From NCBI GenBank assembly GCA_016186645.1, contig JACPLF010000003.1, positions 4,112 through 68,111 of the forward strand: a DNA stretch of 64,000 nt. Reading direction: 5' to 3'. The notes under the pieces are model-generated. The model had not been told where the DNA came from, made no database searches, and saw nothing but the letters and a program-made list of their open reading frames with translations. The translations under genes and the position numbers were made by a program. Source of the DNA: Candidatus Levyibacteriota bacterium (GTDB taxonomy: Bacteria > Patescibacteriota > Microgenomatia > Levybacterales > UBA12049). Below, in pieces: positions 2,756 through 57,660 of this stretch; positions within the stretch are counted from its first letter, which is position 1; every line of letters begins with the position of its first letter.

Positions 2756-3325
2756 ATGGTTCTTTCGGATCGGGATATTAAGAAGGCTTTAAAATCTAAA
2801 AAAATTGTCATTGCACCTTTTCCTGATCTTGAGACACAGCTTGGTTCCTGTTCCATAGATCTTCGGCTTGGAAATACTTTCAGAGTTTTTGAGTACAGCC
2901 GCAATGCCTACATAGATCCCTCCAAAAAAGATTATACAAAAGAAATCACACGAGAGGTGAGGGTCAAAAAGGGAGAACATTTTGTCATACAGCCCGGAGA
3001 TTTTGTCTTGGCTGTAACTTGGGAAAACGTAAAAATTTCAAGTGATCTCATGGGAAGATTGGAAGGCCGTTCGTCTTTGGGCAGACTTGGACTGGTTGTT
3101 CATTCAACAGCAAGCGTGTTTGAGCCGGGATGGGATGGTAAATGCGTTTTGGAATTGGGTAATTTGGGCAGAATGGCGATATCGCTTACGCCGGGCATGA
3201 GAATTTGCGCAATGACATTTGAGCAGATGTCAACCAAAGTTGAAGTCCCTTATGCTAAGAAAAAAGGAGCCAAATATATTGGGCAAAAAGGTCCGGATGA
3301 GAGCAAAATGCACAAGGAAAATTAG
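2756..3325 (+). CDS. dcd: dCTP deaminase
   Basis: N-terminus MVLSDRDIKKAL...IDLRLGN is the canonical dCTP deaminase/dUTPase-fold signature. Confidence 0.85.
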   Translation: MVLSDRDIKKALKSKKIVIAPFPDLETQLGSCSIDLRLGNTFRVFEYSRNAYIDPSKKDYTKEITREVRVKKGEHFVIQPGDFVLAVTWENVKISSDLMGRLEGRSSLGRLGLVVHSTASVFEPGWDGKCVLELGNLGRMAISLTPGMRICAMTFEQMSTKVEVPYAKKKGAKYIGQKGPDESKMHKEN

Positions 3326-3338
3326 TAATTAGAAATTT

Positions 3339-4010
3339 ATGCTTTATCATGTTGAGCTGGACATTGATTTGAAAAGAAATCCATACAAAGGTTTGTACAT
3401 CGTGTTGGAAGGTATTGATGGGTCTGGCAAGACAACGCAGGTCGAGCGGCTAGCAAAATATTTTGAGAAAAAAGGAAAGAAAGTTGTGAGCACGCGGGAA
3501 CCTCGAAAAGAAGGAATAATTGGCGATATTGTGCAGCAGGTCCTTACGAAGAAAATAAAAATGTCTTCTATTGCACTCCAATATTTATTTTCAACAGATA
3601 GAGTTTTGCATCACGAGGAAGTCATAATCCCAGCTCTTAAGGCTGGAAAAATTGTTATTTCCGATCGGTGTTTCTGGTCCGCAATTGTTTATGGAATTTT
3701 GGACAGGGTGAAGAGTTACGACTCAGAAATTGCAAACTTTTTGTATATCAGCCAATCCATTCTTTCAATGTATCACCAATTTATAGTTCCTGATTTTACT
3801 TTTGCCTTAAGGGTAAAGTTGGAAACAGCATTTGCCAGAATTTCAAAAAAAGATGACAAGATAGAAATTTACGAAGACCGCGAAAAACTAAAACGGGTAA
3901 TTAAAGGCTATGATTGGCTCGCCAAGCAGTTCCCCAAAGAAATTACAGTTGTGGATGGGGAGGGAGAAGTTGAGGAAGTAACTAAGAAAATAATTGAAAA
4001 ATTGACCTAA
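3339..4010 (+). CDS. tmk: thymidylate kinase
   Basis: EGIDGSGKTTQ P-loop characteristic of dTMP kinase. Confidence 0.9.
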   Translation: MLYHVELDIDLKRNPYKGLYIVLEGIDGSGKTTQVERLAKYFEKKGKKVVSTREPRKEGIIGDIVQQVLTKKIKMSSIALQYLFSTDRVLHHEEVIIPALKAGKIVISDRCFWSAIVYGILDRVKSYDSEIANFLYISQSILSMYHQFIVPDFTFALRVKLETAFARISKKDDKIEIYEDREKLKRVIKGYDWLAKQFPKEITVVDGEGEVEEVTKKIIEKLT

Positions 4011-4118
4011 TTAACCTAATTGCTCTAATTCCTAAGTTGGAGTTTGGCCCGTCTTGCCGGCGAGGCAGGGAATTGATTAGGTTAATTAGAGTAATTAGTA
4101 ATTAGTAATTAGAAATTT
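4003..4118. repeat. family 1 MITE-like element, copy 1, between tmk and the dcd paralog
   Basis: cctaattaacctaatt ... aattgattaggttaattag TIRs. GC-rich core ggcccgtcttgccggcgaggcaggg, then (gt)aattag x4. Confidence 0.65.
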
Positions 4119-4125
4119 TAAGAAT

Positions 4126-4701
4126 ATGATTTTGGGGCCGAAAGATTTATTAAAATTAGTCAAAACAAAAAAGCTCGTTGAGGGTTTGTCAGAAAGAGAA
4201 CTGACCAATCCTGAAGGAGCTGGGTTTGATTTGCGCTTGGGGGAAGTTTATTCAATTTCCGGCAACGCTTTTTTGGGCGAAACGCATCGGAAAACCGCGG
4301 ACATAAAATTAGTTGCACAATATAGACATATAAAAAAAATAAGCGATCGCATTAAAAAATCAGATATTAAGACCCAAAAAATTGAGATTAAGCCTGGAGA
4401 TTTTTTCCTGGTCAAGACAATCGAATCGGTAAATATGCCCCAAAATTTAACCGCGAGCATAACTCCAAGGTCTACAACTTACCGCTCGGGTTTGTTTCTT
4501 CGCACGGGAAATGTGCAGCCCGGTTACTGCGGGGGATTGATTTTTGGTTTGAAAAACGAAGGACCAATAACAGTCGAAATCGAAATGGGCGCGAGATTTG
4601 TCCACATCCAGTTTTCGCAAGTCAAAGGCGGGGGAAACATGTACCGCGGCCAATGGCAAGGCGGCCGAGTAACCGCGAGAAAAAAGGAAAAACAGGTTTA
4701 G
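4126..4701 (+). CDS. dCTP deaminase/dUTPase-family paralog
   Basis: MILGPKDL...GFDLRLGEVY N-terminus and C-terminal beta-jellyroll motifs (PGYCGGL). Contains an in-frame copy of the AGCGATCGCAT element at 4342-4352. Confidence 0.7.
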   Translation: MILGPKDLLKLVKTKKLVEGLSERELTNPEGAGFDLRLGEVYSISGNAFLGETHRKTADIKLVAQYRHIKKISDRIKKSDIKTQKIEIKPGDFFLVKTIESVNMPQNLTASITPRSTTYRSGLFLRTGNVQPGYCGGLIFGLKNEGPITVEIEMGARFVHIQFSQVKGGGNMYRGQWQGGRVTARKKEKQV

Positions 4702-4719
4702 TTTTTGCCATTTTGACCA

Positions 4720-4748
4720 TTGACAAAGTTGTAACGGTTGTGTATACT
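4720..4748 (+). promoter_or_regulatory. consensus sigma70 promoter TTGACA-N17-TATACT driving dinJ-yafQ
   Basis: -35 at 4720-4725 (a second TTGACC at 4713-4718). TG then TATACT at 4741-4748. Confidence 0.6.
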
Positions 4749-4827
4749 TCTGTTATCCCAGCAAAATTCTTACTTGCGCCCGAATACTACGTGTTCGCGT
4801 CGCAAGAGCGAACGTGCGGGACAAGCT

Positions 4828-5103
4828 ATGCAGACTGTAATTCATATTAGAGCGGACAAGGAAGTTAAGAAAAATGCGGTTGAGGCTGCCAAGGCACTTG
4901 GTTTGAGCTTGAGTGACGTTATTAATGCCGCGCTTCGCAATTTTATAAGGACCAGAGAGGTAATTTTTTCCAACACTCCGCAAATGACTCCGGAGCTCGA
5001 AAAGTATTTGGGTAAAATAGATAAGGATATTAAGCATAGGAGAAATCTGGTTGGTCCTTTCTATAGCGCCAAGGAAATGGACGAATACCTCGATTCCAAA
5101 TGA
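4828..5103 (+). CDS. dinJ: DinJ/RelB-family antitoxin
   Basis: MQTVIHIRADKEVKKNAVEAAKALGLSLSDVINAALRNFI matches the DinJ N-terminal RHH region. The stop overlaps the downstream toxin start (ATGA). Confidence 0.8.
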   Translation: MQTVIHIRADKEVKKNAVEAAKALGLSLSDVINAALRNFIRTREVIFSNTPQMTPELEKYLGKIDKDIKHRRNLVGPFYSAKEMDEYLDSK

Positions 5104-5357
5104 TAATTCAATTACACAAAACCTTCAAAAAACAATACGAAAAACTAACTAAAGCACAAAAAATAAAATTTAAAGAAAGAAGGAGTATTTTTCTTCAAGA
5201 TGAATTTAATCCTGTTCTTAATAACCACGCTTTGAAAGGCAGGTATCAGGGATACAGGAGTATAAATGTTACAGGAGATATAAGGGTGATTTATGAAAAC
5301 AGCTCAGAAGACGTAGTTTTTGTAAAAATAGGCTCCCACAGCAAGCTGTACGGATAA
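5100..5357 (+). CDS. yafQ: YafQ/RelE-family mRNA interferase toxin
   Basis: 85 aa with LKGRYQGYRSINVTGDIRVIYE...VVFVKIGSHSKLY, a RelE/YafQ fold signature. Translationally coupled to the antitoxin. Confidence 0.8.
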   Translation: MIIQLHKTFKKQYEKLTKAQKIKFKERRSIFLQDEFNPVLNNHALKGRYQGYRSINVTGDIRVIYENSSEDVVFVKIGSHSKLYG

Positions 5358-5457
5358 ATAGTCTTATTGCATCGGGGGAGAAAGTTTGTTACATTAGAAA
5401 AGCAAAATAAAAAACTTAAGCGGAGAATATCAATATCTTGATTTACTGAAAGACGTT

Positions 5458-6366
5458 TTGGAAAACGGAGTTAAGAACGTGGATCGGGGGACTGGTGCAG
5501 TTTCTTTCGGCGTTTTTGGAAGACAAACCCGTTATGATTTGTCAAAAGGTTTTCCTCTTTTGACTACGAAAAAAGTCTATTGGAAAGGAGTTTTGCACGA
5601 GCTTTACTGGTTCATAAAAGGGGATTCAAATATTAAATATCTGGTGGACAACAATGTTCATATTTGGGACGATTACCCATATAAAATTTATAATTCAAAA
5701 TCTAGAATTCAGAATTTACAACCATTAACCAAAGAAGAATTTGTTGAAAAGATTAGGACGGATGATAAATTTGCAAAAAAATGGGGAGAATTGCCAAGAA
5801 TTTATGGAGAAATGTGGCGACGCTGGCCCGCCCGCAATCGAACCATAGACCAATTAGGATGGGTTATTAAAGAGATCAAAGAGGACCAATATGCGCGAAA
5901 TCTGATTGTGACTTCATGGAATCCTGAATATTTATATACAATGGCAATCAACAAAGATGCCTCCCGTTTTCCGATTTGCCACAACATGTACCAAATATCA
6001 GTTAAAGGTGGGAAATTAAATTTGCAGTTATATCAGAGAAGCGCAGATTTGTTTCTCGGCGTGCCTTTTAATATTGCTTCTTATGCCCTTTTGACAATTA
6101 TTCTGGCCCGCGTCACAGGATATAAGCCCGGAGAATTTGTTCATACTTTCGGAGATGCACACATTTACAAAAACCATATAGAGCAGGTTAAAGAGCAGCT
6201 TTCTCGGAAGCCCTATCCTTTTCCAACAGTAAAAATTGATCCAAAAGTCAAAAAACTTTCGGATTTTCAGCCGTCGCTAGTTTATTTAGAGAATTATAGC
6301 TCTCGTCCTCCGATTAAAGGCGAATTAACTGTCGCAGGGGGGCTATATGAAGGAAAGAAAAAATGA
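5458..6366 (+). CDS. thyA: thymidylate synthase (the annotated TTG start is uncertain; see findings)
   Basis: The ThyA N-terminal helix EYQYLDLLKDVLENG lies in-frame upstream of the TTG and after a TAG at 5395-5397. The downstream protein has the ThyA signatures RRWPAR, SWNPE and the catalytic PICH. Confidence 0.85.
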   Translation: MENGVKNVDRGTGAVSFGVFGRQTRYDLSKGFPLLTTKKVYWKGVLHELYWFIKGDSNIKYLVDNNVHIWDDYPYKIYNSKSRIQNLQPLTKEEFVEKIRTDDKFAKKWGELPRIYGEMWRRWPARNRTIDQLGWVIKEIKEDQYARNLIVTSWNPEYLYTMAINKDASRFPICHNMYQISVKGGKLNLQLYQRSADLFLGVPFNIASYALLTIILARVTGYKPGEFVHTFGDAHIYKNHIEQVKEQLSRKPYPFPTVKIDPKVKKLSDFQPSLVYLENYSSRPPIKGELTVAGGLYEGKKK

Positions 6367-6896
6367 AGGTTAGTATCATAGCAGCCATAGGGCAAAATAG
6401 GGAATTGGGGAAAAATAATAAATTAATCTGGCATATTAAAGAGGATTTACAACGATTTAAAAGTCTCACCAAAGGTCACCCAATCATAATGGGGCGAAAA
6501 ACATGGGACTCTTTGCCTTTCAAACCCTTGCCGAGTAGAACAAATATTATTATTACTCGGGATGAAACCTTTGCCCCTCATGAAAATCATCACAAATTTA
6601 GCAATTGCAAAAGTTGTGAGGGTTTAGGATTAGCTGTTGTTTACTCCTTAGTCCAAGCAGTTGAACTTGCAAAAAATTCACCGGGAAGCGAGAATGTTTT
6701 TATTATTGGCGGAGGGCAAATTTATAAAGAAGCGATTGAAAAAGGATTGGCGGATAAACTTTATTTAACTCTTGTTGACAGGACTTTTGATGCAGATACT
6801 TTTTTCCCTGATTATTCGCAGTTTAAGAAAATAGTTTTTGAGGAAGAACACGACAGCGGAGGATGCAAATATAGATTTTTGGAATTGGAACGATAA
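6363..6896 (+). CDS. folA: dihydrofolate reductase
   Basis: MKVSIIAAIGQNRELGKNNKLIWHIKEDLQRFKSLTKGHPIIMGRKTW is the classic DHFR N-terminus. There is a 4-nt overlap with thyA. Confidence 0.85.
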   Translation: MKVSIIAAIGQNRELGKNNKLIWHIKEDLQRFKSLTKGHPIIMGRKTWDSLPFKPLPSRTNIIITRDETFAPHENHHKFSNCKSCEGLGLAVVYSLVQAVELAKNSPGSENVFIIGGGQIYKEAIEKGLADKLYLTLVDRTFDADTFFPDYSQFKKIVFEEEHDSGGCKYRFLELER

Positions 6897-6915
6897 ATAG
6901 TTTATAATTATACCC

Positions 6916-8259
6916 ATGACTGAACTGGGAATCGGGCGAAAAGAAATACTCTCTCAAAGAGAAAGACTATCGGATGAACAGTTGGGCAATTTAATTTCTG
7001 CAGTAGGAAACCTTGAAGGAAAAGCAATTACTCTTCTTTTGATGGAACAAGGAAGAATCTATTCAAAGGGGAACCTTTATCATAAATTTATGGGAGCGCA
7101 AGAAGAAAGAATCGGATGGAAACCTGATCGTGCTATTCCTTTTCAATATTGTCAATTTTCTCTTCTTCCAATTGGTCTTGTTGCACTCGGGGAAAAAGAT
7201 CATGATCTTAAAACCTGGGGATATGGAGTAACTCCCTATGGAGAAGAAGAAGGTATTCCATTGGCAGGACTTCTTCTTGATTTCTCAGAAAAACACCCTG
7301 AATTCTCTTTATCGCAGGTTTTTGGGTCAACGAATTCACCCTCTCAGCCTAAAAATATCCAAACACCTGAAGGTGAGACTGAATTTAAATCTAGATCCCC
7401 TATTCTAAGACTTAAAATCTTCCGGAAGCTTATCGCAGCTAAACTGCCTATAAGAGAATCAGATCTTGCCAGTACAATAGGAGAAAATGCTGGAATGATA
7501 GGTCGACATTTAGCTCTCCTTGCAGATTCGCATATTATTTCCTACGAATCGATAAGAAAAGACCAGCCACAATCCTTCTATGCGCTTTCTTCAGAAAAAC
7601 CAAATGAGAGGCTAACACAGCATAGCGCCTTTTCTTCCCTAACTGAAAAAGTATACAGCTTCTTTCTTAACTTAGGTCCATCAAAACAAATAACTCTTGA
7701 GGATATAACAGACTCTCTTATTGCTGCTAACTCTGAAATGGGAAAATTAAATAAACAGGCTTTAAAGCGCAGGATTAGCACGATCTGTAGTTATCTTGCA
7801 AAACAGCACTATCTTGTACAAGGAAAATTTAAAGAAGGTTTAGAATCAGAAATTACTCTTTCAGATACTCAAAAAGCAACTCTTCTTGAGCTCGTTGCTC
7901 TTATAAATAGATTTCAAGGACAAGAGCCAGAAATTCTTGAAGAGGGAAGAAGAAAAGCTATGAAAATCATTCATAATCCCCACAGGGTATCTCATCTTCT
8001 GAGAAAAGCTAAAGAAAGCTCAGGACGCGCCAATAAGCTATCCCAAGGAGAGGGTGCGGATTTTGTTCTGTCCCTAATAAAAGAGCATCCAGGAGCAAGC
8101 GTTGAAGATATTTTCAAATTCCAGGATAGGAAACCAAGACTTTCAATGGCAAATATAGGCGTTATCGTTCATCGTCTTAGAGGAAACGATAGAGTCTCTG
8201 TTTCAAGAAGAACAGTGAAAAACCGTTTTACAGCAGTGGATTCAGAAAGGGAGAATTGA
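6916..8259 (+). CDS. hypothetical 447-aa protein with several tandem winged-helix (ArsR/MarR-like) modules
   Basis: Repeated segments of the form xxDLASTIGENAGMIGRHLALLADSHIISYE. TATAAT at 6903-6908 lies 7 nt before the ATG. Confidence 0.5.
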   Translation: MTELGIGRKEILSQRERLSDEQLGNLISAVGNLEGKAITLLLMEQGRIYSKGNLYHKFMGAQEERIGWKPDRAIPFQYCQFSLLPIGLVALGEKDHDLKTWGYGVTPYGEEEGIPLAGLLLDFSEKHPEFSLSQVFGSTNSPSQPKNIQTPEGETEFKSRSPILRLKIFRKLIAAKLPIRESDLASTIGENAGMIGRHLALLADSHIISYESIRKDQPQSFYALSSEKPNERLTQHSAFSSLTEKVYSFFLNLGPSKQITLEDITDSLIAANSEMGKLNKQALKRRISTICSYLAKQHYLVQGKFKEGLESEITLSDTQKATLLELVALINRFQGQEPEILEEGRRKAMKIIHNPHRVSHLLRKAKESSGRANKLSQGEGADFVLSLIKEHPGASVEDIFKFQDRKPRLSMANIGVIVHRLRGNDRVSVSRRTVKNRFTAVDSEREN

Positions 8260-8274
8260 TTCTAATTTACATAT

Positions 8275-9591
8275 ATGAAGGCATTGGAAGACATTGATTC
8301 GCAGATTTTTGCACTTATAAAACAGGAAGAAAAACGCACGGCATCCACTTTGGAGATGATTCCTTCCAATAATTATCCAAGTAAAGCAGTTCTTGAGGCG
8401 CTTGGTTCAATATTAAACTACAAATATTCCGAGGGCTATCCGAAAAAACGTTATTATCAAGGGCAAAGAATTGCTGATCAAGTAGAGATTTTGGCTCAAG
8501 AGCGGGCAAAAAAACTTTTTGGTGTACCCCATGCAAATGTACAGCCATATTCAGGAAGTCCTGCAAATACAGCAGTATATTTTGCGCTTTTAGAACCTTT
8601 TAAGGACAAAATTATGGGTTTATCCCTGGCATATGGCGGACACTTAACTCACGGATCTCCTGTTAGTTTTTCCGGAAAATACTTTAAAGTTGTTCCTTAT
8701 CAATTGGGGAAGGATGGACGTTTTGATTATGAAGAGATAGAAAAATTGGCAATTGCGGAGAAACCAAAAATCATTGTTTGCGGGGCAACTGCATACCCAA
8801 GAATTATTGATTTTAAAAGATTTGGGCAAATCGCAGACAAAGTTGGGGCGTATTTGCTCGCGGATATTTCTCACATTGCAGGTTTAATTATTGCTGGAGT
8901 TCACCCATCGCCAGTTGATCACGCCCATATTATCATGACTACAACACACAAAACATTGCGAGGCCCGCGGGGGGCGATGATTATGGTTACAGAAAAAGGA
9001 CTTAAAAAAGACCCGGAATTGGGGAATAAAATTGATAAGGCGGTTTTTCCAGGTTTGCAGGGAGGACCTCATGACAATCAAACAGCGGCAATCGCAGTTG
9101 CCCTTCGGCTGGCTTCGGGTAAACAGTTTAAAGTTTACATTGAGCACGTAGTGCGAAATGCAAAAGTGCTGGCTCAAGAGCTTGTTAAATTCAATTTTAA
9201 ATTAGTAAGCGGTGGAACAGACAATCACTTATTGTTAATTGATTTGTCCAACAAAAAAGTAAATGGCGCAGTTGCGGCTTTGGCTTTGGAAGTTGCGGGC
9301 ATTGTAATTAATAAAAACGCAGTGCCGGGTGACTTAATGCCTCCTTTTTATCCTTCCGGAATTAGATTAGGAACGCCCGCAATCACAACTCGCGGCATGA
9401 AAGAGCGGGAAATGGTAAAAATTGCAAATTGGATAAATGAGACGATTAATGAAGTTTCAAATCGGGTTTTGCCTGCGAATAAAGAACAACGAAAGGAATT
9501 TTTCAAAAATTTCCGTGAAGAAGTTTTCAAAAACAAAAAACTATTACAAATCGCCAAAGAAGTGAGGGAGCTTTGCTCAAAGTTTCCTTAA
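8275..9591 (+). CDS. glyA: serine hydroxymethyltransferase
   Basis: Full-length SHMT; the PLP-lysine region is in THKTLRGPRG. Confidence 0.95.
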   Translation: MKALEDIDSQIFALIKQEEKRTASTLEMIPSNNYPSKAVLEALGSILNYKYSEGYPKKRYYQGQRIADQVEILAQERAKKLFGVPHANVQPYSGSPANTAVYFALLEPFKDKIMGLSLAYGGHLTHGSPVSFSGKYFKVVPYQLGKDGRFDYEEIEKLAIAEKPKIIVCGATAYPRIIDFKRFGQIADKVGAYLLADISHIAGLIIAGVHPSPVDHAHIIMTTTHKTLRGPRGAMIMVTEKGLKKDPELGNKIDKAVFPGLQGGPHDNQTAAIAVALRLASGKQFKVYIEHVVRNAKVLAQELVKFNFKLVSGGTDNHLLLIDLSNKKVNGAVAALALEVAGIVINKNAVPGDLMPPFYPSGIRLGTPAITTRGMKEREMVKIANWINETINEVSNRVLPANKEQRKEFFKNFREEVFKNKKLLQIAKEVRELCSKFP

Positions 9592-9673
9592 GACTTTTAA
9601 TCCGGGCATTTAATCACCAATTTTTAGAATTCAAACTGCTCTCAAAAACAAATTTAGACATCTGATTATTTAC

Positions 9674-9684
9674 AGCGATCGCAT
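9674..9684. repeat. AGCGATCGCAT (HIP1-like 11-mer) copy; five identical copies in the window
   Basis: Copies at 4342-4352, 9674-9684, 23653-23663, 34208-34218 and 40775-40785. Each continues into similar A-rich ATCA(G/T)A context. Confidence 0.7.
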
Positions 9685-9713
9685 AAAAAAATCAGATAAC
9701 TAAATGTAAATTT

Positions 9714-9867
9714 ACCCCGTTACCCAATGTCCCATCCGTTAGGATGCGGGTTTCTAGTGGCGTGAAGCGAAAATTCAATAATGCCCGGACCCGCTTCGCC
9801 CAAGCTCCCGCCTAGACTCGGCGAGGCTGGTCAGCGAGGCGAGCCGTAAGGTCGTGGGTAACGGGGT
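9714..9867. repeat. 154-bp MITE-like element with 13-bp perfect terminal inverted repeats; the interior carries a 57-mer that is also present inside dnaX
   Basis: ACCCCGTTACCCA at 9714-9726 and TGGGTAACGGGGT at 9855-9867. Interior 9788-9844 matches 25870-25926 at 55 of 57 positions. Confidence 0.7.
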
Positions 9868-9978
9868 TTACTGAATTCCTGTTATTGTAAGACTGAGGTG
9901 TCAAGCTAACACACCCCAGGGGTGTACGAGGGGAGTGTTCTGTCAGGAAAAAGTCGAGTTGAAAATGAAATCATCTTA

Positions 9979-9987
9979 TGCTATAAT
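9979..9987 (+). promoter_or_regulatory. extended -10 promoter TGCTATAAT, 8 nt upstream of the ATG at 9996 (leaderless start)
   Basis: Sequence tgctataat ccgatagt ATG. Confidence 0.5.
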
Positions 9988-9995
9988 CCGATAGT

Positions 9996-11522
9996 ATGAT
10001 AGGCACAAAGGAAGCAGTTTCTCGTACATTTCCAGAAACTCTAAGTGGAGAGCAAAACAGCTTCGTAGGTTTTATTGACCAAAATAGAGATCTTTTTGAG
10101 AGACATACTTCTTCGACTTATGAGTTAAGAGATGAACGAGATGGCTGGAGAAATTCTCCCACGATAAGTGAAGTGGCGCATAAGCACGCAGTTCTGTCAC
10201 TGCCTCTTAGGGGGGGGCATAATGCGTCTCCTCCAAACACCAGAGAATGGAAGCGGCATGAAGAGAGGATAAGAGATGCTATCGATAGGGAAATCTTTAG
10301 CAGCCCTGATGGAAAAAATACTTTGCCTGCAAAGCGACCGCCTCTTGATTCAATTTGGGCGAAAACAACTCCTTTACAAAGAGCTGAAATACAAGAATTA
10401 ATGGGCAGGACTGAAGAATTTCAAGCAGACTTCCTTGCGGCAATAGCGCCTTTAGCCGCAGAAGTTGAACAATTAAAAGAGGAATTATTTTCCAATTTCA
10501 AAAATTATCTGTTTTCAGATCCTGACGGCATTTTCGCCGTTAGAGATTTCCTAACAGATAAAAAATTCGCGTCTCAGAGAGAAACCATAAGACCTTTTCT
10601 TGCCAGTTTTGTTCAGAGTGAAGATAAGTTAGCAAAAGACGGCAAGAGAGGAATATTGGGCGAGACAGTTAAAAAGTGGGCAGATGAAATTTCGAAAAGA
10701 GTAACTCCAGTTCTTGTTGACGAATTTGTTGAGTCTATTAGAAATCCTAATGTTCTTGAATGGCTGGAATTTGCAGCAAATATGCCTATAAGCGTTCTGG
10801 GTACAACTGAGGAAAGGGATAAAGATTTGATAAGAGATAGCATTGTCAGTTTTCTTAAGAGCCGTCCGGATGTTTCTTTTTGGCCGCCAGAACTCAAAAA
10901 AGCATTATCCTCTTTTGCTTCATCTAAATATGCTACCGCGCGTTCTTCTGTAGAAAAGGGGTTAGAAGGGTTTAGAAGACCGTTGAGTTCAAAACCGGCA
11001 CCGCAGATCCATCTGGAACCAGAAAAGAAAATAGAAGGGGCGCCTGTTCAGGAAGATGCCAAAAAAGAACCAGATGATAAAAAAGGTGCATCAGAAAAGG
11101 CTGAAAAAAGAAAATATCCGATTGGGATATTGACAAAAGAAAGCGGATCGTCGCATGGGTTTGACATTAGGGTTTTAACAGAAGAGGAACTGAAAGATTT
11201 TTTACGAGAAAAGGCTGATTCTTTTGCTTCTTCGGATTTAAAAATGGCGGGAGATTTTAGAACTATAGTTGCCAGTCTGCGAGAGGATCCTTATGGGTTT
11301 GGCACAAAAAAACTCAACAACATGTCTGTTGGAATTGGTAAAACAAAAAGTTCTCCCATTCGAAGCATGGATCCTGGAAAAAGAATCGGCCTTCATCTTG
11401 AACATCCGGAATCGCAGAAAATTAGAATTGCTTATGTTATTTATGGAAGCGGAGACGATAAAGTAATTGTTATTGAAGGAATTTATAGTCATGATGATTA
11501 TGACAGTAAATTTGGAGCATAG
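9996..11522 (+). CDS. hypothetical 508-aa protein with a C-terminal RelE/ParE-like toxin fold
   Basis: C-terminal about 100 aa (LKDFLRE...DPYGFGTKKLNN...IRIAYVIYGSGDDKVIVIEGIYSHDDY) follows the RelE/ParE pattern. The N-terminal 400 aa are unrecognised. The gene is GC-richer than the flanking sequence. Confidence 0.5.
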   Translation: MIGTKEAVSRTFPETLSGEQNSFVGFIDQNRDLFERHTSSTYELRDERDGWRNSPTISEVAHKHAVLSLPLRGGHNASPPNTREWKRHEERIRDAIDREIFSSPDGKNTLPAKRPPLDSIWAKTTPLQRAEIQELMGRTEEFQADFLAAIAPLAAEVEQLKEELFSNFKNYLFSDPDGIFAVRDFLTDKKFASQRETIRPFLASFVQSEDKLAKDGKRGILGETVKKWADEISKRVTPVLVDEFVESIRNPNVLEWLEFAANMPISVLGTTEERDKDLIRDSIVSFLKSRPDVSFWPPELKKALSSFASSKYATARSSVEKGLEGFRRPLSSKPAPQIHLEPEKKIEGAPVQEDAKKEPDDKKGASEKAEKRKYPIGILTKESGSSHGFDIRVLTEEELKDFLREKADSFASSDLKMAGDFRTIVASLREDPYGFGTKKLNNMSVGIGKTKSSPIRSMDPGKRIGLHLEHPESQKIRIAYVIYGSGDDKVIVIEGIYSHDDYDSKFGA

Positions 11523-11609
11523 GACTCCGGATAGACTTTTAGGACTTCTTCCGCCAACTGGCGGATTTGACTTTCTCGGCTTTAATTGTTATTCTCCGAT
11601 TATAAATTT

Positions 11610-11960
11610 ATGTCAAAAATAGAACGCTTAAGAGAAGAAATAGCTGGCTCAGGCCTATTAAACCATCATACATTAGACGTTATCGGAGTAAAACATAGAC
11701 GTTTTTATGGCGACGAAGAAAGTAAGGGCCATAGAGCAGAACAGCGAAGAGCCCAATTTGCGCAAGGATTCCCAGGGATGCAATTTAATCGTGCATTAGG
11801 AAAAATGCTTGATGGAACCGCAACTCAAGAGGATGTAGAATACGTTTTTAGTAACGTTCATCGATATGAACAAGTGATTGAAAGATGTAAAACGGAAAAA
11901 CGGTCAGTTACAATTACAATTGTTGATTTTACTCCACCCAATTCTGAAAATTTATCCTGA
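11610..11960 (+). CDS. hypothetical protein (116 aa); possible partner of the upstream RelE-fusion gene
   Basis: ORF track (11586 TTG or 11610 ATG). GC-richer than the flanking sequence. Confidence 0.4.
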   Translation: MSKIERLREEIAGSGLLNHHTLDVIGVKHRRFYGDEESKGHRAEQRRAQFAQGFPGMQFNRALGKMLDGTATQEDVEYVFSNVHRYEQVIERCKTEKRSVTITIVDFTPPNSENLS

Positions 11961-12154: not shown

Positions 12155-12973
12155 ATGAGAGAAATTACACTGGAAGAATTATTGGAGGCAGGCTGTCATT
12201 TTGGCCACCAGGTCACAAGAAGCAATCCCAAGGCTCGTGATTTTATATTTGAAGCCCGCGATAATATCCACATTATTGATTTAGCCAAAACAAAAGAAGG
12301 GCTCGTTGAGGCCGCCGCTTTTGTCAAAGATTTAGCATCCAAAAATGGAACTTTGGTAGTTGTCGGAACAAAAAGACAGGCAAAAGCGATTGTGGAAGAA
12401 GCCCTACGCCTTGCTCAGGATAAAGGAGCAGGGGAAGGACTTTATTATATAACTAACCGTTGGGTTGGAGGACTTTTGACAAATTTCTCCGAGGTTTCCA
12501 AAAACTTTAAAAAATATGCAGATTTCGTAACTGATTTGCAGGATGACGAAGTAAAAGCAAGATATACAAAAAAAGAAATAGGCGGGTGGGAGAAAGAAAG
12601 CCGCAAGTTGGAAAATCTTTACGGCGGAGTTGCGAAAATTACAAAAAAACCTGATGCATTATTTATTATCGACTCCCATTTGGAAGATTTGGCAGTTAGG
12701 GAAGCTTTAGCTACACATATTCCAACTGTCGGAATAGTTGATACAAATGCAGACCCGGCTGTTTTAGACTATCCAATTCCTGCCAACGACGATGCAGTCG
12801 GTTCGATAAAATTAATCGTAAGCTATATAATTGATGCGTGGATAGAAGGCCGCAAGGAAGCCGAACTAAGAATTAAGAATGAAGAATTAAAAGTTAAAAA
12901 AGAAGCTGAAAAGGCAGAAGCAAAAGCATCTAAGGTACAAGTTAAAACCGTTGCAAAAAAGAAAAAGAAATAA
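12155..12973 (+). CDS. rpsB: 30S ribosomal protein S2
   Basis: MREITLEELLEAGCHFGHQ N-terminus. SD AAGGGAG at 12144-12150. Confidence 0.95.
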   Translation: MREITLEELLEAGCHFGHQVTRSNPKARDFIFEARDNIHIIDLAKTKEGLVEAAAFVKDLASKNGTLVVVGTKRQAKAIVEEALRLAQDKGAGEGLYYITNRWVGGLLTNFSEVSKNFKKYADFVTDLQDDEVKARYTKKEIGGWEKESRKLENLYGGVAKITKKPDALFIIDSHLEDLAVREALATHIPTVGIVDTNADPAVLDYPIPANDDAVGSIKLIVSYIIDAWIEGRKEAELRIKNEELKVKKEAEKAEAKASKVQVKTVAKKKKK

Positions 12974-34244: not shown

Positions 34245-37200
34245 ATGGTCTGTAGGATTTTCCCCATTGCAGACTATACCTTCTTGCACTACAGTTTAAT
34301 AGTGAGATTATTTGCTCGTAATCTTTTATTCATCATTTCTTTCATTTTCCTTTTGTTATTTCCCTCAAATGTAAGCGCGGCAGAATTGCAGCCGGGAAGC
34401 GTTTGGCAGTGGAATGATGCATCCGCCTCTGCAGTTACTCAAAAACAAGGTTTAAGCAATGTAGCTTCTGTTAGTATAGGTCGTGATCATAGTCTTGCTT
34501 TGGAAAGTGACGGTACTGTGTGGGCATGGGGAAATAACCAATACGGGCAGTTGGGTAATGGAGAGAGCGGAGGAAGCCTTGTTGATCCGGTTCAAGTAAA
34601 ACTTTTGGGAGGTGGTTATCTGACGGATGTTAAAGGTATTTCCGCAGGATACAAATGGAGCATTGCCATTAGAAATGATGGGACAGTTTGGGTGTGGGGC
34701 TACGATGGATATGGAGCAAGAGGAGCAGGAGTAGGAAATAATGACAGTGACAGCAAGCTTCTCGTAGCAACGCAGGTTAAAGGTCCAAGCAACTTTCTGC
34801 AAATTGTTGCAATAGCCGCAGGAGATAATCACAGCATTGCGCTAAAAGCCGACGGAAGTGTCTTTGCATGGGGATTAAATAATAATGGGCAAGTGGGTAT
34901 CGGCTGTTATTTATATAATTGTAGTCGAATCGATAGTCCAGTTAAAGTTCTCGACAATGCTATTGCAATTGCCGCAGGCGGACATCATACCCTTGCGGTG
35001 AAAGCAGATCAAACGGTTTGGGGATGGGGAAGAACAAGTGAAGGACAGTTGGGATCTATCACCGGTAGTTTTGGAGTTCAGGGGTCTCCTATCCAAATTC
35101 CAGGAATTTCCGGAATAAAAAATGTTTGGGCAAAAACAAACTGGAATGTCGCTTTGTCTAATAATGGAAGCCTATTCGGTTGGGGACATGGGAGTTATAC
35201 ATATTCTGGCGATAGAAATCCGAAACAAGTATCTGGTTTAGGCGAGGTAACGTTGGCGGCTGTTGGACAAACGATTTTTGCTCCAGTTGGTATTGCTGTA
35301 AAAGGCGATGGGACGTTATGGTGGTGGAATGCCGAAAATAATAGTAATCCAACACAGATTTCAACCCTTTCAAACATCGGCTCTGTTGCAGTCGGTTTGT
35401 TTACTCCTAGTCTTGCTTCGGTTTTCCTTCCAGCTCCAACCCCAACTCCGACACCAACACCTACTCCCAAAACTCCTTTAATCTTAATTCCCGGCATCGG
35501 AGGGTCAGAGTTGAAAGTTGTCGAGGAAACATATTGGTTAGAAAAAGATGATGGGCATGGAGGAAATTTTAATTATATTTATCCTACGGACGAAACAGTT
35601 TGGCTAAATGAAGACAAAGCAAAGGATTTTGGTGAAGATGACTATTTTGATGTTTTGAGAATGAAAAATGATGGTATAACTTCCGAAGCAAATATAGGGA
35701 TTACTGAAAACTTGCTAGGTAGAGCTTACCAGGGGACAATAGATTTTTTTATTTCCAACGGTTACGAATTAAATAAAAATTTTTTTGTTTTTCCTTATTA
35801 TTGGAGAAAAGATATTGCATTAACAGCATTACTTCTTAATGAAAAAATAAATGAAATAAAAACACAAACGGGGAGTCAAAAAGTGGATATTGTTGCTCAT
35901 AGTATGGGAGGACTGGTGGCTAGAAATTATATATCCGATGTGACAAAAGCTCAAAATGTCAGAAAATTATTTACTTTAGGAACCCCGCATCTGGGGTCAG
36001 TGGATTCGTTAAAGAATTTGAGATACGGCGCTTGCCTAACTCCTTTGCCTATATCATTAGGCCCATTGTGCCTAGGAATAGCAGATACAGAAACAAATGA
36101 TGTTGTTCAGAATATGGTTAGTGTATTTCAATTAGTACCAAGTCAAGCTTATTTTAATTTTTATTCCGGAGAAGATAATCAGCACCCATTTCCCTATAGA
36201 ACAGAATCAGGAACTTTGAACTATATGCAAATTAAAAATTTATTAACCGGTCTTAATTTTAACACGCCTCTTTTTAATCCCTCTGAAGCTTTTCATACTC
36301 TGGATAATTCGTTATTCAGTACGAATGGCGTTGATGTAACGTTAATTGCAGGTTCCGGCCAAAAAACTTTGGGGCAAATTGTTGAAGAAAAAAGGACTTC
36401 CTTGTTGGGAATTCCATATATTCATAAAGACACAATTAATATCAATGGCGATGGGACAGTTTCGCTTTTTAGCGCTTCTCTTAACGACTCCGATAATGGT
36501 ATTTCTTTTTTGGGTAATGCAAAAGTTTTTTATACGAAGCAGGATCATGGTAATCTGGTTTCTTCGGGGTCAGCATTAAATCTCATAAAAAATATTTTAA
36601 ACGATGATAATCAGTTGCCTGTTGGAGTTTCTGCCCAACCCTATTTTTTCAGTGGAAGTCAAATTTCCGTGCATTCTCCTGTTAACATTCATGTTTATGA
36701 TTCATTGGGAAACCATACTGGCCCAACAAGCAATGGAGATTTTGAAGCGAATATTCCAGGAAGTTCTTACGATACTTTGGATGATGCTAAATTTATTTGG
36801 CTTCCGGATAACGGACAGTATGATATTAAATTTGAAGCAACTGATCAGGGTAGTTTTGATTTCAAAATCAGAAAATATGAAGATGATGAAAATACGGAAA
36901 CTATACTCTATAAAGAAATTCCATTAGCCAATAATACAAAAGCGGAAACTTCATTTGATACTCAATCTTCAGAAGTTCCCATTATTAGAATTGATGAGGA
37001 TGGAAATGGCAATTTTGACTTTAATATAGAGCACTTCAGTATTTTGGAAGGAGATGCAAATTATGATTATACTCCTCCAACTATCTCCTCAGCTGTTAAT
37101 CCAAAATCTATCTGGCCGCCAAACAATAAGATGGTTAATGTAAATATTACAGGCGCTATAACTGATGAGAATCCATATTTAGTAACAATCTTGGTTGATG

Positions 37201-37400
37201 ATGAATATGACTTAATTGAACCTTCAATAACTATCCAGAATCAGACAAATATTAATGAAACTATAAAGTTGGAAGCTTCAAGAAAAGGTGGCGATAAAGA
37301 TGGGAGGAAATATACAATAAAAATATTGGCTACGGATCTGGCTGGAAATACTTCGCTTTCTATTGCAGAAGTAATTGTTCCGCATGACCAGAGGAAATAA
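34245..37400 (+). CDS. 1051-aa secreted multidomain protein: RCC1-like repeats, PT linker, alpha/beta-hydrolase lipase domain (GHSMGG), C-terminal Ig-like region
   Basis: Signal peptide. GRDHSLALESDGTVWAWGNNQYGQLG repeats x6-7. PTPTPTPTPTP at about 35437-35470. VAHSMGGLVARNY. C-terminal KYTIKILATDLAGNTS. Confidence 0.75.
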   Translation: MVCRIFPIADYTFLHYSLIVRLFARNLLFIISFIFLLLFPSNVSAAELQPGSVWQWNDASASAVTQKQGLSNVASVSIGRDHSLALESDGTVWAWGNNQYGQLGNGESGGSLVDPVQVKLLGGGYLTDVKGISAGYKWSIAIRNDGTVWVWGYDGYGARGAGVGNNDSDSKLLVATQVKGPSNFLQIVAIAAGDNHSIALKADGSVFAWGLNNNGQVGIGCYLYNCSRIDSPVKVLDNAIAIAAGGHHTLAVKADQTVWGWGRTSEGQLGSITGSFGVQGSPIQIPGISGIKNVWAKTNWNVALSNNGSLFGWGHGSYTYSGDRNPKQVSGLGEVTLAAVGQTIFAPVGIAVKGDGTLWWWNAENNSNPTQISTLSNIGSVAVGLFTPSLASVFLPAPTPTPTPTPTPKTPLILIPGIGGSELKVVEETYWLEKDDGHGGNFNYIYPTDETVWLNEDKAKDFGEDDYFDVLRMKNDGITSEANIGITENLLGRAYQGTIDFFISNGYELNKNFFVFPYYWRKDIALTALLLNEKINEIKTQTGSQKVDIVAHSMGGLVARNYISDVTKAQNVRKLFTLGTPHLGSVDSLKNLRYGACLTPLPISLGPLCLGIADTETNDVVQNMVSVFQLVPSQAYFNFYSGEDNQHPFPYRTESGTLNYMQIKNLLTGLNFNTPLFNPSEAFHTLDNSLFSTNGVDVTLIAGSGQKTLGQIVEEKRTSLLGIPYIHKDTININGDGTVSLFSASLNDSDNGISFLGNAKVFYTKQDHGNLVSSGSALNLIKNILNDDNQLPVGVSAQPYFFSGSQISVHSPVNIHVYDSLGNHTGPTSNGDFEANIPGSSYDTLDDAKFIWLPDNGQYDIKFEATDQGSFDFKIRKYEDDENTETILYKEIPLANNTKAETSFDTQSSEVPIIRIDEDGNGNFDFNIEHFSILEGDANYDYTPPTISSAVNPKSIWPPNNKMVNVNITGAITDENPYLVTILVDDEYDLIEPSITIQNQTNINETIKLEASRKGGDKDGRKYTIKILATDLAGNTSLSIAEVIVPHDQRK

Positions 37401-50673: not shown

Positions 50674-51306
50674 ATGGACAATGACAAAATAGACCAATTA
50701 GCAAAAATATTAGTTCGTAAAATAGATAAAGAAGTTTTTGAGAGAAAATATGCGCCCGTTAAAACAATCCTGAAGCTCGTTGGCGCCGGAGCGTTTTTAA
50801 TGGCTGCTATGATTATGCCAGGTTTGCCTTTGGCGCTCAAGCCATTTATGGATGAAAAAAGAAAAGAAGAGTATGAAGTCTGGAAGAGATTTAATATACC
50901 TTATCTAAAAAGAACGCTATTGAGATTGGAAAAGCAAAAGTTAGTTGAAATAGCAGATGAAGACAGTAGGCAAGTTGTTAAGATTACCAATCAAGGAAAA
51001 CAAAAAATTATTAAGATGGCACTGGATGAACTTACTGTTGAAAAACCGAAAATATGGGACGGAAAATGGAGACTTGTTAGTTTTGATTTACCTGAAACTA
51101 AGGCTCAACAAAGAAAAAGATTCGTAGAGTATTTGAGCGTGTGGGGGTTTTACCCCCTACATAAAAGTGTTTATTTACATGCTTATCCTTGTTTTAAGCA
51201 AGTAGAGTTTCTGAGAGAATATATGAATGTTGGAGAGTACGTCAGGAATTTTACCGTATCTAAAATAGAAAACGATAAATTATTCAAAGATTTTTTTGGA
51301 GTCTAG
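50674..51306 (+). CDS. hypothetical 210-aa protein with a Cas2/VapD-like (PaaX-like) segment; flanked by about 30-bp direct repeats
   Basis: WRLVSFDLPETKAQQRKRFVEYLSVWGFYPLHKSVY follows the Cas2 beta-alpha-beta pattern. Repeats at 50637-50668 and 51310-51342 share AATTACCCGATCGG. Confidence 0.4.
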   Translation: MDNDKIDQLAKILVRKIDKEVFERKYAPVKTILKLVGAGAFLMAAMIMPGLPLALKPFMDEKRKEEYEVWKRFNIPYLKRTLLRLEKQKLVEIADEDSRQVVKITNQGKQKIIKMALDELTVEKPKIWDGKWRLVSFDLPETKAQQRKRFVEYLSVWGFYPLHKSVYLHAYPCFKQVEFLREYMNVGEYVRNFTVSKIENDKLFKDFFGV

Positions 51307-51444: not shown

Positions 51445-52149
51445 GTGAATATGATAGATAAACTTAGAAAAGAGATTAAGAAAGCGGCAGATCCTAAGAA
51501 GGCGGAAGTTTCGCAGAGGTTTTTCAAGACAGGGAGGGGAGAATATGCGGAAGGGGATGTATTTTTAGGAATCACAGTTCCGGAGTCTCGCAAAATTGCA
51601 ATTAAGTTTAAAGATATTTCTTTTACCGAAATTGTTAAGCTTCTCAGATCAAAAATTCATGAAGAAAGATTAATTGCGCTTCTGGTCCTCGTTAATAATT
51701 TTAATATGGGTGATGAAAAGATGCAGGAAAAGATTTATAAATTTTATCTGAAAAATATAAAATATATAAATAACTGGGATTTTGTTGATTTGTCCGCGGA
51801 TAAAATAGTAGGCGGCTATTTGATTAGAAAACAAAAGGATATATTATTTAGACTAGCAAAATCGAAAAATATTTGGAAAAGAAGAATTTCAATAATTGCA
51901 ACTTATTATTTCATTAAAAACAATAAGTTTGAGGAAACCTTAAAAATTTCAGAGATTTTACTTTTTGATAACCATGATTTAATCCAAAAAGCAGTTGGAT
52001 GGATGCTTAGAGAAGTCGGCAATAGGGATTTGAAAATGGAAATTGGGTTTTTGAATAAACATTACAAAAAAATGCCCCGCACCATGCTTCGCTACGCCAT
52101 CGAAAAATTCCCTAAGAAGCATAGAATGTTATATTTGAAGAGAAATTGA
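51445..52149 (+). CDS. alkD: DNA alkylation repair enzyme (AlkD/HEAT-repeat family)
   Basis: Tandem HEAT-like helical repeats consistent with the AlkD family fold. Confidence 0.7.
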   Translation: MNMIDKLRKEIKKAADPKKAEVSQRFFKTGRGEYAEGDVFLGITVPESRKIAIKFKDISFTEIVKLLRSKIHEERLIALLVLVNNFNMGDEKMQEKIYKFYLKNIKYINNWDFVDLSADKIVGGYLIRKQKDILFRLAKSKNIWKRRISIIATYYFIKNNKFEETLKISEILLFDNHDLIQKAVGWMLREVGNRDLKMEIGFLNKHYKKMPRTMLRYAIEKFPKKHRMLYLKRN

Positions 52150-56721: not shown

Positions 56722-57660
56722 TTATCGCGTCAGTTCAATAATCACGAAGATAACGTAAAATCCCAATAACACAAGCCCATTTGTTCTTGAGATATAATTT
56801 TTGGTACGGAAGAAAAAATAGAATGATCCAAGAGCGGTAAGAATAAATAGAAAAGTAATAATAAAGTTGTCTACTGTCAATATTTCTCCGCCATGTAAAA
56901 GCGTAAAAATACCAAACAAAAGGGTATTTGCTGCCGCAGATCCCATATAATCTCCCATTGCTATCTCTCTTTTTCTGGAAATAACGCTTCTTACAGCTAG
57001 GGATAATTCCGGCAAGTTCGTTCCAAGAGCTATTACAAAAAGGCTGATGTAAAATGCAGAAATATTAAAAATGCCTGCAAAATAAGTTGTCTTATCTACA
57101 ATTATACTGCTTGATGCAAAAACAATGCCTATACCTAAAAGTATTTTGAGAATGTCTTTGTAGGAATAAGCTTTTACATTAAAAAGTTGCCCATTACTCC
57201 TGTCAAAAATTCCATTTTTTCTTTCCACAAAAAAAAGCAAAACAACATACAAGAAGACAAGCATGAAGCCTTCTAAGGTACTCACTTTTTTATCCAATAT
57301 AAATAATGAGGGCGTTAGAATGACTACCAGGCTTATCAAGAGAGTTTTGTTGTCAAGCTCATTTTTTAGGCTTATTCCATTTCCCAAGACTGCCAGTAAA
57401 GGAATAATAACTAGAAATATCACAACAATTCCGCCAAGTAAATTTCCGACAAAGATTTCAGGGCGATTGCCCGCTACTGCCTGAAGGCCAACTGAGAATT
57501 CAGGTATTGAAGTCAATATTCCCAAAAAAACAAAAGAAAAAGCAAAAGGAGACAATCTTAATTTGCTGGAAAATTTACTAGTCGAGGAAACAACCAGGCC
57601 TGCGCCAAGCCAAATGAAAATGAAAGCAAGAAAATAGAGAATTAGATTTAAACCAAACAC
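56722..57660 (-). CDS. CaCA-family cation/Ca2+ antiporter (YrbG-like)
   Basis: GTNLPEL alpha-repeat motif. Confidence 0.75.
   Translation of the reverse strand: MFGLNLILYFLAFIFIWLGAGLVVSSTSKFSSKLRLSPFAFSFVFLGILTSIPEFSVGLQAVAGNRPEIFVGNLLGGIVVIFLVIIPLLAVLGNGISLKNELDNKTLLISLVVILTPSLFILDKKVSTLEGFMLVFLYVVLLFFVERKNGIFDRSNGQLFNVKAYSYKDILKILLGIGIVFASSSIIVDKTTYFAGIFNISAFYISLFVIALGTNLPELSLAVRSVISRKREIAMGDYMGSAAANTLLFGIFTLLHGGEILTVDNFIITFLFILTALGSFYFFFRTKNYISRTNGLVLLGFYVIFVIIELTR

Follow-up and report, generated by a model that had tools for sequence, protein, structure and literature searches.

A four-module winged-helix protein conserved in Microgenomates and Saccharibacteria, a candidate single-chain DNA-binding factor

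We describe a 447-amino-acid protein encoded on the forward strand at positions 6916-8259 of a 64,000-nucleotide stretch of contig JACPLF010000003.1 from a Candidatus Levyibacteriota bacterium (the window, meaning the whole stretch at its full length). The protein is predicted to be a single chain of four winged-helix (WH) modules, and the reading that we favor, to which we give a probability of about 0.5, is that it is a lineage-specific DNA-binding factor with several WH modules that acts genome-wide, and not a dedicated regulator of the thyA, folA and glyA genes among which it lies. The family is unnamed, and the modules themselves are ordinary winged helices of the MarR, ArsR and BlaI types. 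What is out of the ordinary is that a fixed arrangement of four such modules in one chain is maintained over at least 588 clusters at 50% identity in two classes of the Candidate Phyla Radiation (CPR), with neither a family model nor a structural analogue. The open reading frame (ORF) has an ATG start and its coordinates include the stop codon; its product is 100% identical to the NCBI entry 'hypothetical protein HYW62_00445' of Candidatus Levybacteria bacterium.

An AlphaFold2 model built on a 59-sequence alignment (predicted local distance difference test, pLDDT, 90.3; predicted template-modelling score, pTM, 0.77) shows four modules, each composed of three helices and a beta-hairpin. In the model they occupy residues 20-105, 161-224, 240-314 and 377-440 and are joined by helical linkers, so that the layout can be written as (WH - helical linker - WH) x2. 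A first-pass annotation of the same DNA had read the gene as an uncharacterised protein with at least four winged helix-turn-helix (HTH) segments of ArsR/MarR type, and had proposed structure prediction as a check; the model contains no other fold and leads to no clear homology with a characterised family, and the ArsR/MarR resemblance is borne out by profile and Foldseek comparisons. Two of the segments it quoted, residues 183-211 and 396-423, correspond to the second and third helices (H2-H3), with or without the wing, of WH2 and WH4. A third, residues 259-278, does lie within WH3 but covers the second helix, the recognition-type helix being at 280-296, and no segment was quoted for WH1, which is the best conserved module. 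Scans of the protein against Pfam, NCBIfam, PADLOC and PHROGs gave nothing above threshold, and these curated libraries revealed no domain of catalytic, sensor, defence or phage type, in agreement with the annotated lack of enzymatic motifs. It was also rightly said to belong to no nameable family, as no Pfam or NCBIfam model covers the four-WH protein.

The N-terminal module resembles regulators of the MarR and PadR types. Modelled alone, the 149 N-terminal residues gave a pLDDT of 84, and Foldseek matched this model to the MarR protein HcaR (probability 0.97) and also to PadR/LmrR, RTP, Roquin ROQ and Orc/Cdc6 WH domains, in all of which a long helix comes after the winged helix. Together with helices 20-31 and 107-126, WH1 was aligned to HcaR, MexR and ZitR with probabilities of 0.8-0.97, though weakly (E of 0.027 or more; TM score 0.4-0.5), and the alignment of WH1 plus helix 107-126 to the MarR/PadR/RTP group (HcaR 4rgx, LmrR 4zzd, Bacillus subtilis RTP 1bm9) extends over about 110-137 columns at a probability of 0.9-0.99. 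WH1 carries the MarR 'GLV...wing...T..G' pattern, its 'SLxPIGLVAKE..D..TYGY.IT.YG' paralleling the MarR 'sLekrGLVvRe.d..DrRty.v.LTekG', and in the model the helix after WH1 sits where MarR, PadR and RTP proteins have a C-terminal helix of the dimerisation type. There are clear differences as well: WH1 has a 13-residue H2-H3 loop where the MarR type has a tight turn, its H3 ('PFxYCxxSLxPIGLV') is hydrophobic and almost devoid of basic residues, and the long helix continues into further modules instead of ending the chain. The window protein does not match the MarR models PF01047 and PF12802. Pfam matches among the 59 members include HTH_24 (18/59), MarR (12/59, sub-threshold, best E 3e-4) and HTH_5 (9/59).

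WH2 is closest to the ArsR/SmtB proteins (HTH_5/HTH_20; HlyU 4k2e, SmtB 1r22, ArsR 6j05), with which it shares the fold, a 'PxTRLxIx' helix, a 'HLxxLxxxGxI' recognition helix and a 'Y.L' wing; the ArsR motifs 'PxRLxIL' and 'HL..L...GL' appear within residues 161-224 as 'SPILRLKIF' and 'GRHLALLADSHIISY'. The family profile compared with the PDB matched HlyU, LrpA, ArsR and SmtB at residues 152-236 (E 0.003-0.02 for HlyU, ArsR and SmtB), and an NCBIfam ArsR model matched the window protein at residues 165-228 with an E of 0.016, under the cut-off; NF033788 gives 15 bits where 55 are required, and there is no Pfam match to HTH_5 (PF01022). Only one distant family member, P0173, exceeds the HTH_5 threshold (24.6 versus 22); it passes the Pfam gathering scores with HTH_5 in WH2 and Penicillinase_R in WH4. 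ArsR proteins are single-domain homodimers of about 100-120 amino acids with metal or effector sites, whereas the protein described here has 447 amino acids and four modules, and in the model residues 225-239, after the WH2 wing, form a loop in place of the C-terminal alpha5 dimer helix of ArsR.

WH3 is homologous to WH4 (hhalign probability 94%, E 1.5e-7), and at residues 372-448, which take in WH4, the family profile matched BlaI, the Zalpha domain of PKZ, Hop2 and the WH domain of MCM. With hhalign the N-terminal half can be aligned collinearly, though weakly, to the C-terminal half, as would be compatible with an old duplication of a WH-linker-WH unit. By sequence, the single window protein has no match in the PDB and the family profile gives weak matches to single WH domains, with MarR among them; by structure, single WH domains match at a probability of 1.0 (PerR, Hop2, PKZ Zalpha, BlaI/MecI, Rpc34, ArsR and MexR in Foldseek), and no whole-chain analogue was found among solved or viral structures. 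The nearest concept is that of SarS (1p4x), in which two MarR-like winged HTH domains in one chain mimic a dimer, so that there, too, one polypeptide would hold several MarR-type DNA-reading heads; SarS is however a protein of the staphylococcal lineage with two domains and not four, and it matches at a probability of 0.41 (TM 0.14/0.23) with no sequence similarity detected. In our reading the four-WH protein is cytoplasmic, with modules descended from bacterial regulators of the MarR/ArsR type.

The modules differ in both conservation and charge. Mean column conservation falls from 0.62-0.63 in WH1 and its linker to 0.50 in WH2, 0.42 in WH3 and 0.39 in WH4, while the mean charge rises from -1.1 through +1.5 and +2.4 to +3.5, which makes WH1 the best conserved module and neutral to acidic, while WH4 combines the highest positive charge with the lowest conservation. 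In WH1 the H3 helix has on average 0.4 lysine or arginine residues, and the H3 helices and wings of WH2, WH3 and WH4 are basic. The isoelectric point of the whole protein is 9.2 (family median 8.8). Invariant or near-invariant positions include W68, Y78-C79, G87-L88, G109, R160, P162 and S369, the last of them in the 'KAKExSxxAN' loop.

By homology search the family is specific to Microgenomates and Saccharibacteria, two CPR classes. A word-indexed search found 61 full-length homologues of 430-470 amino acids, and an exhaustive search with a profile through 1.84 billion cluster representatives (clusters at 50% identity) returned 1417 homologous representatives at E<=1e-3, 1084 at E<=1e-10 and 588 at E<=1e-30; among the top 150 matches listed nearly all were end-to-end, and the newly returned proteins were mostly 425-470 amino acids long. 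The Saccharibacteria homologues cover the whole profile, and a look-up of this branch gave no names or annotation. A scan of species-representative genomes gave 18 loci labelled Patescibacteria, Microgenomates, Levybacteria or Saccharibacteria/Saccharimonadales; some metagenome-assembled genomes (MAGs) bore unconfirmed 'Gammaproteobacteria' labels. Five family-bearing MAGs (loci L014, L016, L017, L019 and L020) are titled 'uncultured Gammaproteobacteria bacterium'; as the family is otherwise restricted to Patescibacteria, these are probably mislabelled assemblies. A literature search found no paper that describes the four-WH family or ties winged-helix proteins to CPR.

Some members depart from this layout. 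Three members of about 1000 amino acids (P0062, P0063 and P0070) each consist of two full copies fused head to tail, three of about 700 (P0067, P0080 and P0116) of a full copy fused to a shorter WH1-WH2 copy, and two loci (L021 and L025) lack the third module (profile positions ~218-305). The fusions thus bring in further WH units only, and the extensions of the longer members hold no informative domains. On one contig (L009) two family genes occur, at 3472-4761 and at 12396-12761 on the reverse strand, and such two-copy genomes, with fused or separate genes, hint that copies may act together. A free-standing two-WH paralogue, corresponding to the unit fused in P0067, P0080 and P0116, was not found by homology search and adjoins no family member. 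Within the window, tblastn and hmmsearch found no paralogue of the gene, a weak match at 51721-51975 (E 0.011) being put down to chance, and a 429-aa gene beside P0006, considered as a paralogue, was ruled out by an hhalign probability of 0.7%.

In the window the gene (X) is part of the order dcd-tmk-dcd-thyA-folA-X-glyA: 19 nt upstream lies the dihydrofolate reductase gene folA (6363-6896; PF00186, E 6e-46), which overlaps the thymidylate synthase gene thyA (5458-6366) by 4 nt, and 15 nt downstream lies the serine hydroxymethyltransferase gene glyA (8275-9591; PF00464, E 4e-154). Further upstream of thyA are a RelB/YafQ toxin-antitoxin pair, two dCTP-deaminase-like genes (dcd), a thymidylate kinase gene (tmk) and folC. 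The location between folA and glyA, in a folate/thymidylate cluster, had been read correctly for this genome, and a tie to one-carbon or thymidylate metabolism had been drawn from it, which the comparison with relatives does not support. The order thyA-folA-X-glyA recurs only in a relative 70% identical in the four-WH protein (L031/L032); it is already lost at 60% identity (L033, with other neighbours), at 57% (L030, next to an M16 peptidase) and at 55% (L028, where the gene comes after comEA-comEC-MBL). When the window's ThyA, FolA and GlyA were used as tblastn queries, none was found within 6-8 kb of the homologue in 27 loci (about 22 non-redundant). In all other loci examined (about 24 non-redundant) the folate order is absent, and the gene has unrelated housekeeping genes for neighbours and is in many cases monocistronic, as in L003, L008 and L009, where this follows from opposite-strand genes on both sides. 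All-against-all clustering of neighbouring ORFs gave no recurring partner gene beyond close relatives. As nearly all genes of the window are on the forward strand with short gaps, adjacency is in any case little informative in a genome of such co-oriented and tightly packed genes, and the placement in the folate/thymidylate cluster is a local accident of gene order.

Two further neighbours look like chance. Small proteins with a PaaX_M (Cas2-like) domain adjoin the four-WH gene in two unrelated lineages (L001, 9431-9949; L005, 7392-7859), and one is encoded in the window at 50674-51306 on the forward strand; this adjacency may be fortuitous if the PaaX_M family is multi-copy in CPR genomes. 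GroES/EL lie about 5 kb or less from the family gene in two lineages.

The gene is also predicted to begin its own transcription unit. The sigma-70-type site in front of it is the second-best promoter match in the region 5200-10200 (10/12) with a perfect TATAAT, and its distance from the ATG implies a leaderless or near-leaderless mRNA. The spacer between folA and X, including the -10 box, is 100% identical in L031, while the flanking proteins are only 66-70% identical. A TATAAT-like box, often with an extended TG and with no Shine-Dalgarno (SD) sequence, occurs 4-14 nt before the start in 17 of 25 homologue loci, and loci from Microgenomates and Saccharibacteria alike show this leaderless-type arrangement in front of the family gene. 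No forward-strand terminator was found between X and glyA, and the two genes are for this reason probably co-transcribed, in the window genome and its closest relative only. As a separate observation, an SD-like sequence is present in only 7 of the 62 genes in the window, and the same kind of box (often TG-extended) lies 4-14 nt before the start of 18 of 62, for example before the starts at 401, 6916, 9996, 30562, 42627, 47467 and 48944 on the forward strand and at 57660 on the reverse strand (ORF 56722-57660). Leaderless-type starts thus seem to mark where transcription units begin in this Levybacteria genome, and leaderless mRNAs appear to be usual for their first genes. A 508-aa gene (9996-11522) has the top-ranked promoter-like site of the region, TTGAAA-17-TGnTATAAT, which ends 8 nt before its ATG.

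We suggest the following mode of action. The basic and fast-evolving modules WH2-WH4 would bind nucleic acid, most likely double-stranded DNA, because their sequence affinities are only to families of DNA-binding regulators and the modules are basic. One polypeptide would thereby supply several DNA-reading heads; ordinary MarR and ArsR regulators obtain these by dimerising. The uncharged and conserved WH1 with its long helix would read no DNA and may instead be a module for protein contact, self-association or ligand sensing. Since the gene mostly forms a unit of its own, with unrelated housekeeping genes around it, the targets of its product are likely to be scattered over the genome, and the protein would be either a global regulator or a factor of chromosome architecture. 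A bolder version, which we consider unlikely, would make it a master genome-wide factor of Microgenomates and Saccharibacteria, a four-headed 'built-in oligomer' that acts as chromosome organiser or rare global transcription regulator and whose WH1 docks on RNA polymerase or SMC or senses a host-derived metabolite.

Several points speak against a DNA-binding factor of genome-wide role. The recognition-helix positions are poorly conserved, the net charge is just moderately positive, and the window protein stays below every curated HTH threshold. The high pTM points to a compact assembly, in which some of the 'recognition' helices could be buried as they are in Rpc82 or ESCRT-II. A single-copy protein of 450 amino acids is atypical of abundant nucleoid proteins. 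Upstream of the family genes, inspection by eye, with no systematic motif search, revealed promoter boxes alone and no shared operator.

The alternative that survives best, and that we nevertheless think improbable, is that the modules serve protein-protein contacts, as in the kleisin partners ScpB/MukE or in Rpc82/RPC62, ESCRT-II or UFL1, and that the protein is a subunit of a conserved machine, for instance SMC, the replisome or RNA polymerase. Such multi-WH scaffolds (Rpc82/RPC62 with its four extended WH, SelB WH1-4, UFL1-DDRGK1 and the ScpB/MukE KITE proteins) likewise hold tandem WH in one fixed assembly, and pTM of the order found here implies a fixed inter-domain arrangement in the model; in WH1, the best conserved surface, H3 is hydrophobic and not basic, the doubled WH-linker-WH layout recalls a two-WH dimer whose subunits have been fused, and some members are fused to a second copy, full or half. 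Scaffold proteins (Rpc82/RPC62, TFIIIC tauB, UFL1-DDRGK1, ESCRT-II, ScpB) are also the best whole-chain Foldseek matches in the PDB, in a list that includes SelB and SarS, but these matches are weak (best E 0.013), and to all of the proteins the TM score over the query is at most 0.15. The four WH of Rpc82/RPC62 do not superpose (7z1l_O, 7a6h_O, 5afq and 2xub: TM<=0.15, root-mean-square deviation 24-31 A, probability 0.07-0.30). ScpB (6juv) reaches a probability of 0.63 with a TMt of 0.28; neither ScpB nor a related family is among the 25 Pfam families with the most matches across members, scpA or smc is a neighbour in no examined family locus, and the idea of an ScpB replacement gained no supporting signal. 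None of these scaffolds is a stand-alone bacterial protein of about 450 amino acids with this layout, and there is no sequence similarity to them; what similarity there is in sequence points to DNA-binding regulators, and no conserved partner gene lies nearby. The protein moreover evolves faster than the core enzymes encoded near it, with 70% identity between the window and L031 compared with 92% for ThyA and 78% for GlyA in the same pair of genomes.

A still less probable alternative is that the tandem WH act on structured RNA, as in SelB WH1-4, Roquin ROQ or the La motif, with mRNAs under leaderless translation as one conceivable target. Roquin ROQ is one of the best Foldseek matches to the N-terminal module (probability 0.85-0.92), SelB WH1-4 appears in the whole-chain list, WH4 matches Zalpha domains, and leaderless-type starts are common in this Levybacteria genome. 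These ROQ, SelB and Zalpha matches are, however, no better than those to the DNA-binding MarR, PadR and ArsR proteins, the signals at the sequence level are only to DNA-binding HTH families, and the ROQ-matching WH1 is uncharged. In SelB the C-terminal WH1-4 follow an EF-Tu-like GTPase, whereas here neither a GTPase nor another translation-factor domain is present, and 1lva matches at a probability of 0.20 (TM 0.12/0.19).

Finally, a dedicated local regulator of thyA-folA-glyA that responds to a one-carbon or nucleotide metabolite would fit the tight spacing, the order retained in the 70%-identical relative, the probable X-glyA co-transcription and a WH1 core rich in conserved aromatic and cysteine residues that could in principle bind a ligand, but it is largely refuted by the comparative context set out above, with 0 of about 22 non-redundant loci holding thyA, folA or glyA nearby, no recurring partner, a packed single-strand neighbourhood and a promoter of its own, and we regard it as very improbable.

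Table 1. Positions in the window of the four-WH gene, its predicted modules and linkers, and the promoter-like site in front of it.
Feature	Position	Strand	Remarks
Promoter-like site, sigma-70 type, TTGGAA-18 nt-TATAAT	6879..6908	+	-10 box ends 7 nt before ATG
Coding sequence of the four-WH protein	6916..8259	+	447 aa, stop included
WH1, aa 20-105 (predicted)	6973..7230	+	N-terminal helix 20-31, winged helix 34-105, 13-residue H2-H3 loop
Long and short helix after WH1, aa 107-136 (predicted)	7234..7323	+	motif 'G.PLAGLLLDFS'
Beta-hairpin (146-157) and basic 'EFKKR' motif ahead of WH2, aa 146-160 (predicted)	7351..7395	+	R160 invariant
WH2, aa 161-224 (predicted)	7396..7587	+	ArsR/SmtB-like; motifs 'APxTRLKIF', 'HLxxLxxxGxIxY'
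WH3, aa 240-314 (predicted)	7633..7857	+	basic H3 'KQALKRRISTICSYLAK'; absent from some members
Three-helix linker, aa 317-368 (predicted)	7864..8019	+	motifs 'QSEIxLTDxQ', 'RFQxQDxExLxxG'; then loop 'KAKExSxxAN', S369 invariant
WH4, aa 377-440 (predicted)	8044..8235	+	minimal winged helix, BlaI/Zalpha-like

The genomes of CPR bacteria are tiny, few regulators can be recognised in them, and to our knowledge almost nothing is known about gene control or DNA organisation in these organisms. A conserved, fixed four-WH protein of Microgenomates and Saccharibacteria offers a concrete candidate for a role of this kind, one that can be tested, and experimental work is feasible because cultivable Saccharibacteria have homologues. 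The family merits a family model of its own, since its members are currently annotated as 'hypothetical' or carry arbitrary ArsR, HxlR or Lrp labels. We point out that in co-oriented, tightly packed genomes gene adjacency is poor evidence of function, and that this warrants caution.

Some other features of the window deserve mention. On either side of the thymidylate kinase gene lie two divergent dCTP-deaminase/dUTPase-like genes (2756-3325 and 4126-4701, forward strand; PF22769, E 3.5e-47 and 8.6e-25), which suggests that two distinct activities processing dCTP or dUTP may feed dTMP synthesis. Between the second of these and thyA, the type II pair consists of a RelB antitoxin and a YafQ(ParE) toxin gene (4738-5103 and 5100-5357, forward strand) that overlap by 4 nt. 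The FolC/Mur-ligase-like protein at 401-1957 on the forward strand has a Ser/Pro/Gln-rich low-complexity insert, 'QTDSNPSPNSASLSKSRLQSRTQPTFSSSESGLSRS', at about residues 335-385, between its middle and C-terminal domains. Directly 3' of glyA, two forward-strand ORFs of 508 and 124 amino acids (9996-11522 and 11586-11960) have no Pfam match. At 34245-37400, also on the forward strand, a 1051-aa protein joins an RCC1-like beta-propeller (PF25390, E 9e-55) to an alpha/beta-hydrolase domain of the lipase/LCAT type, an unusual combination for a bacterium with a reduced genome.

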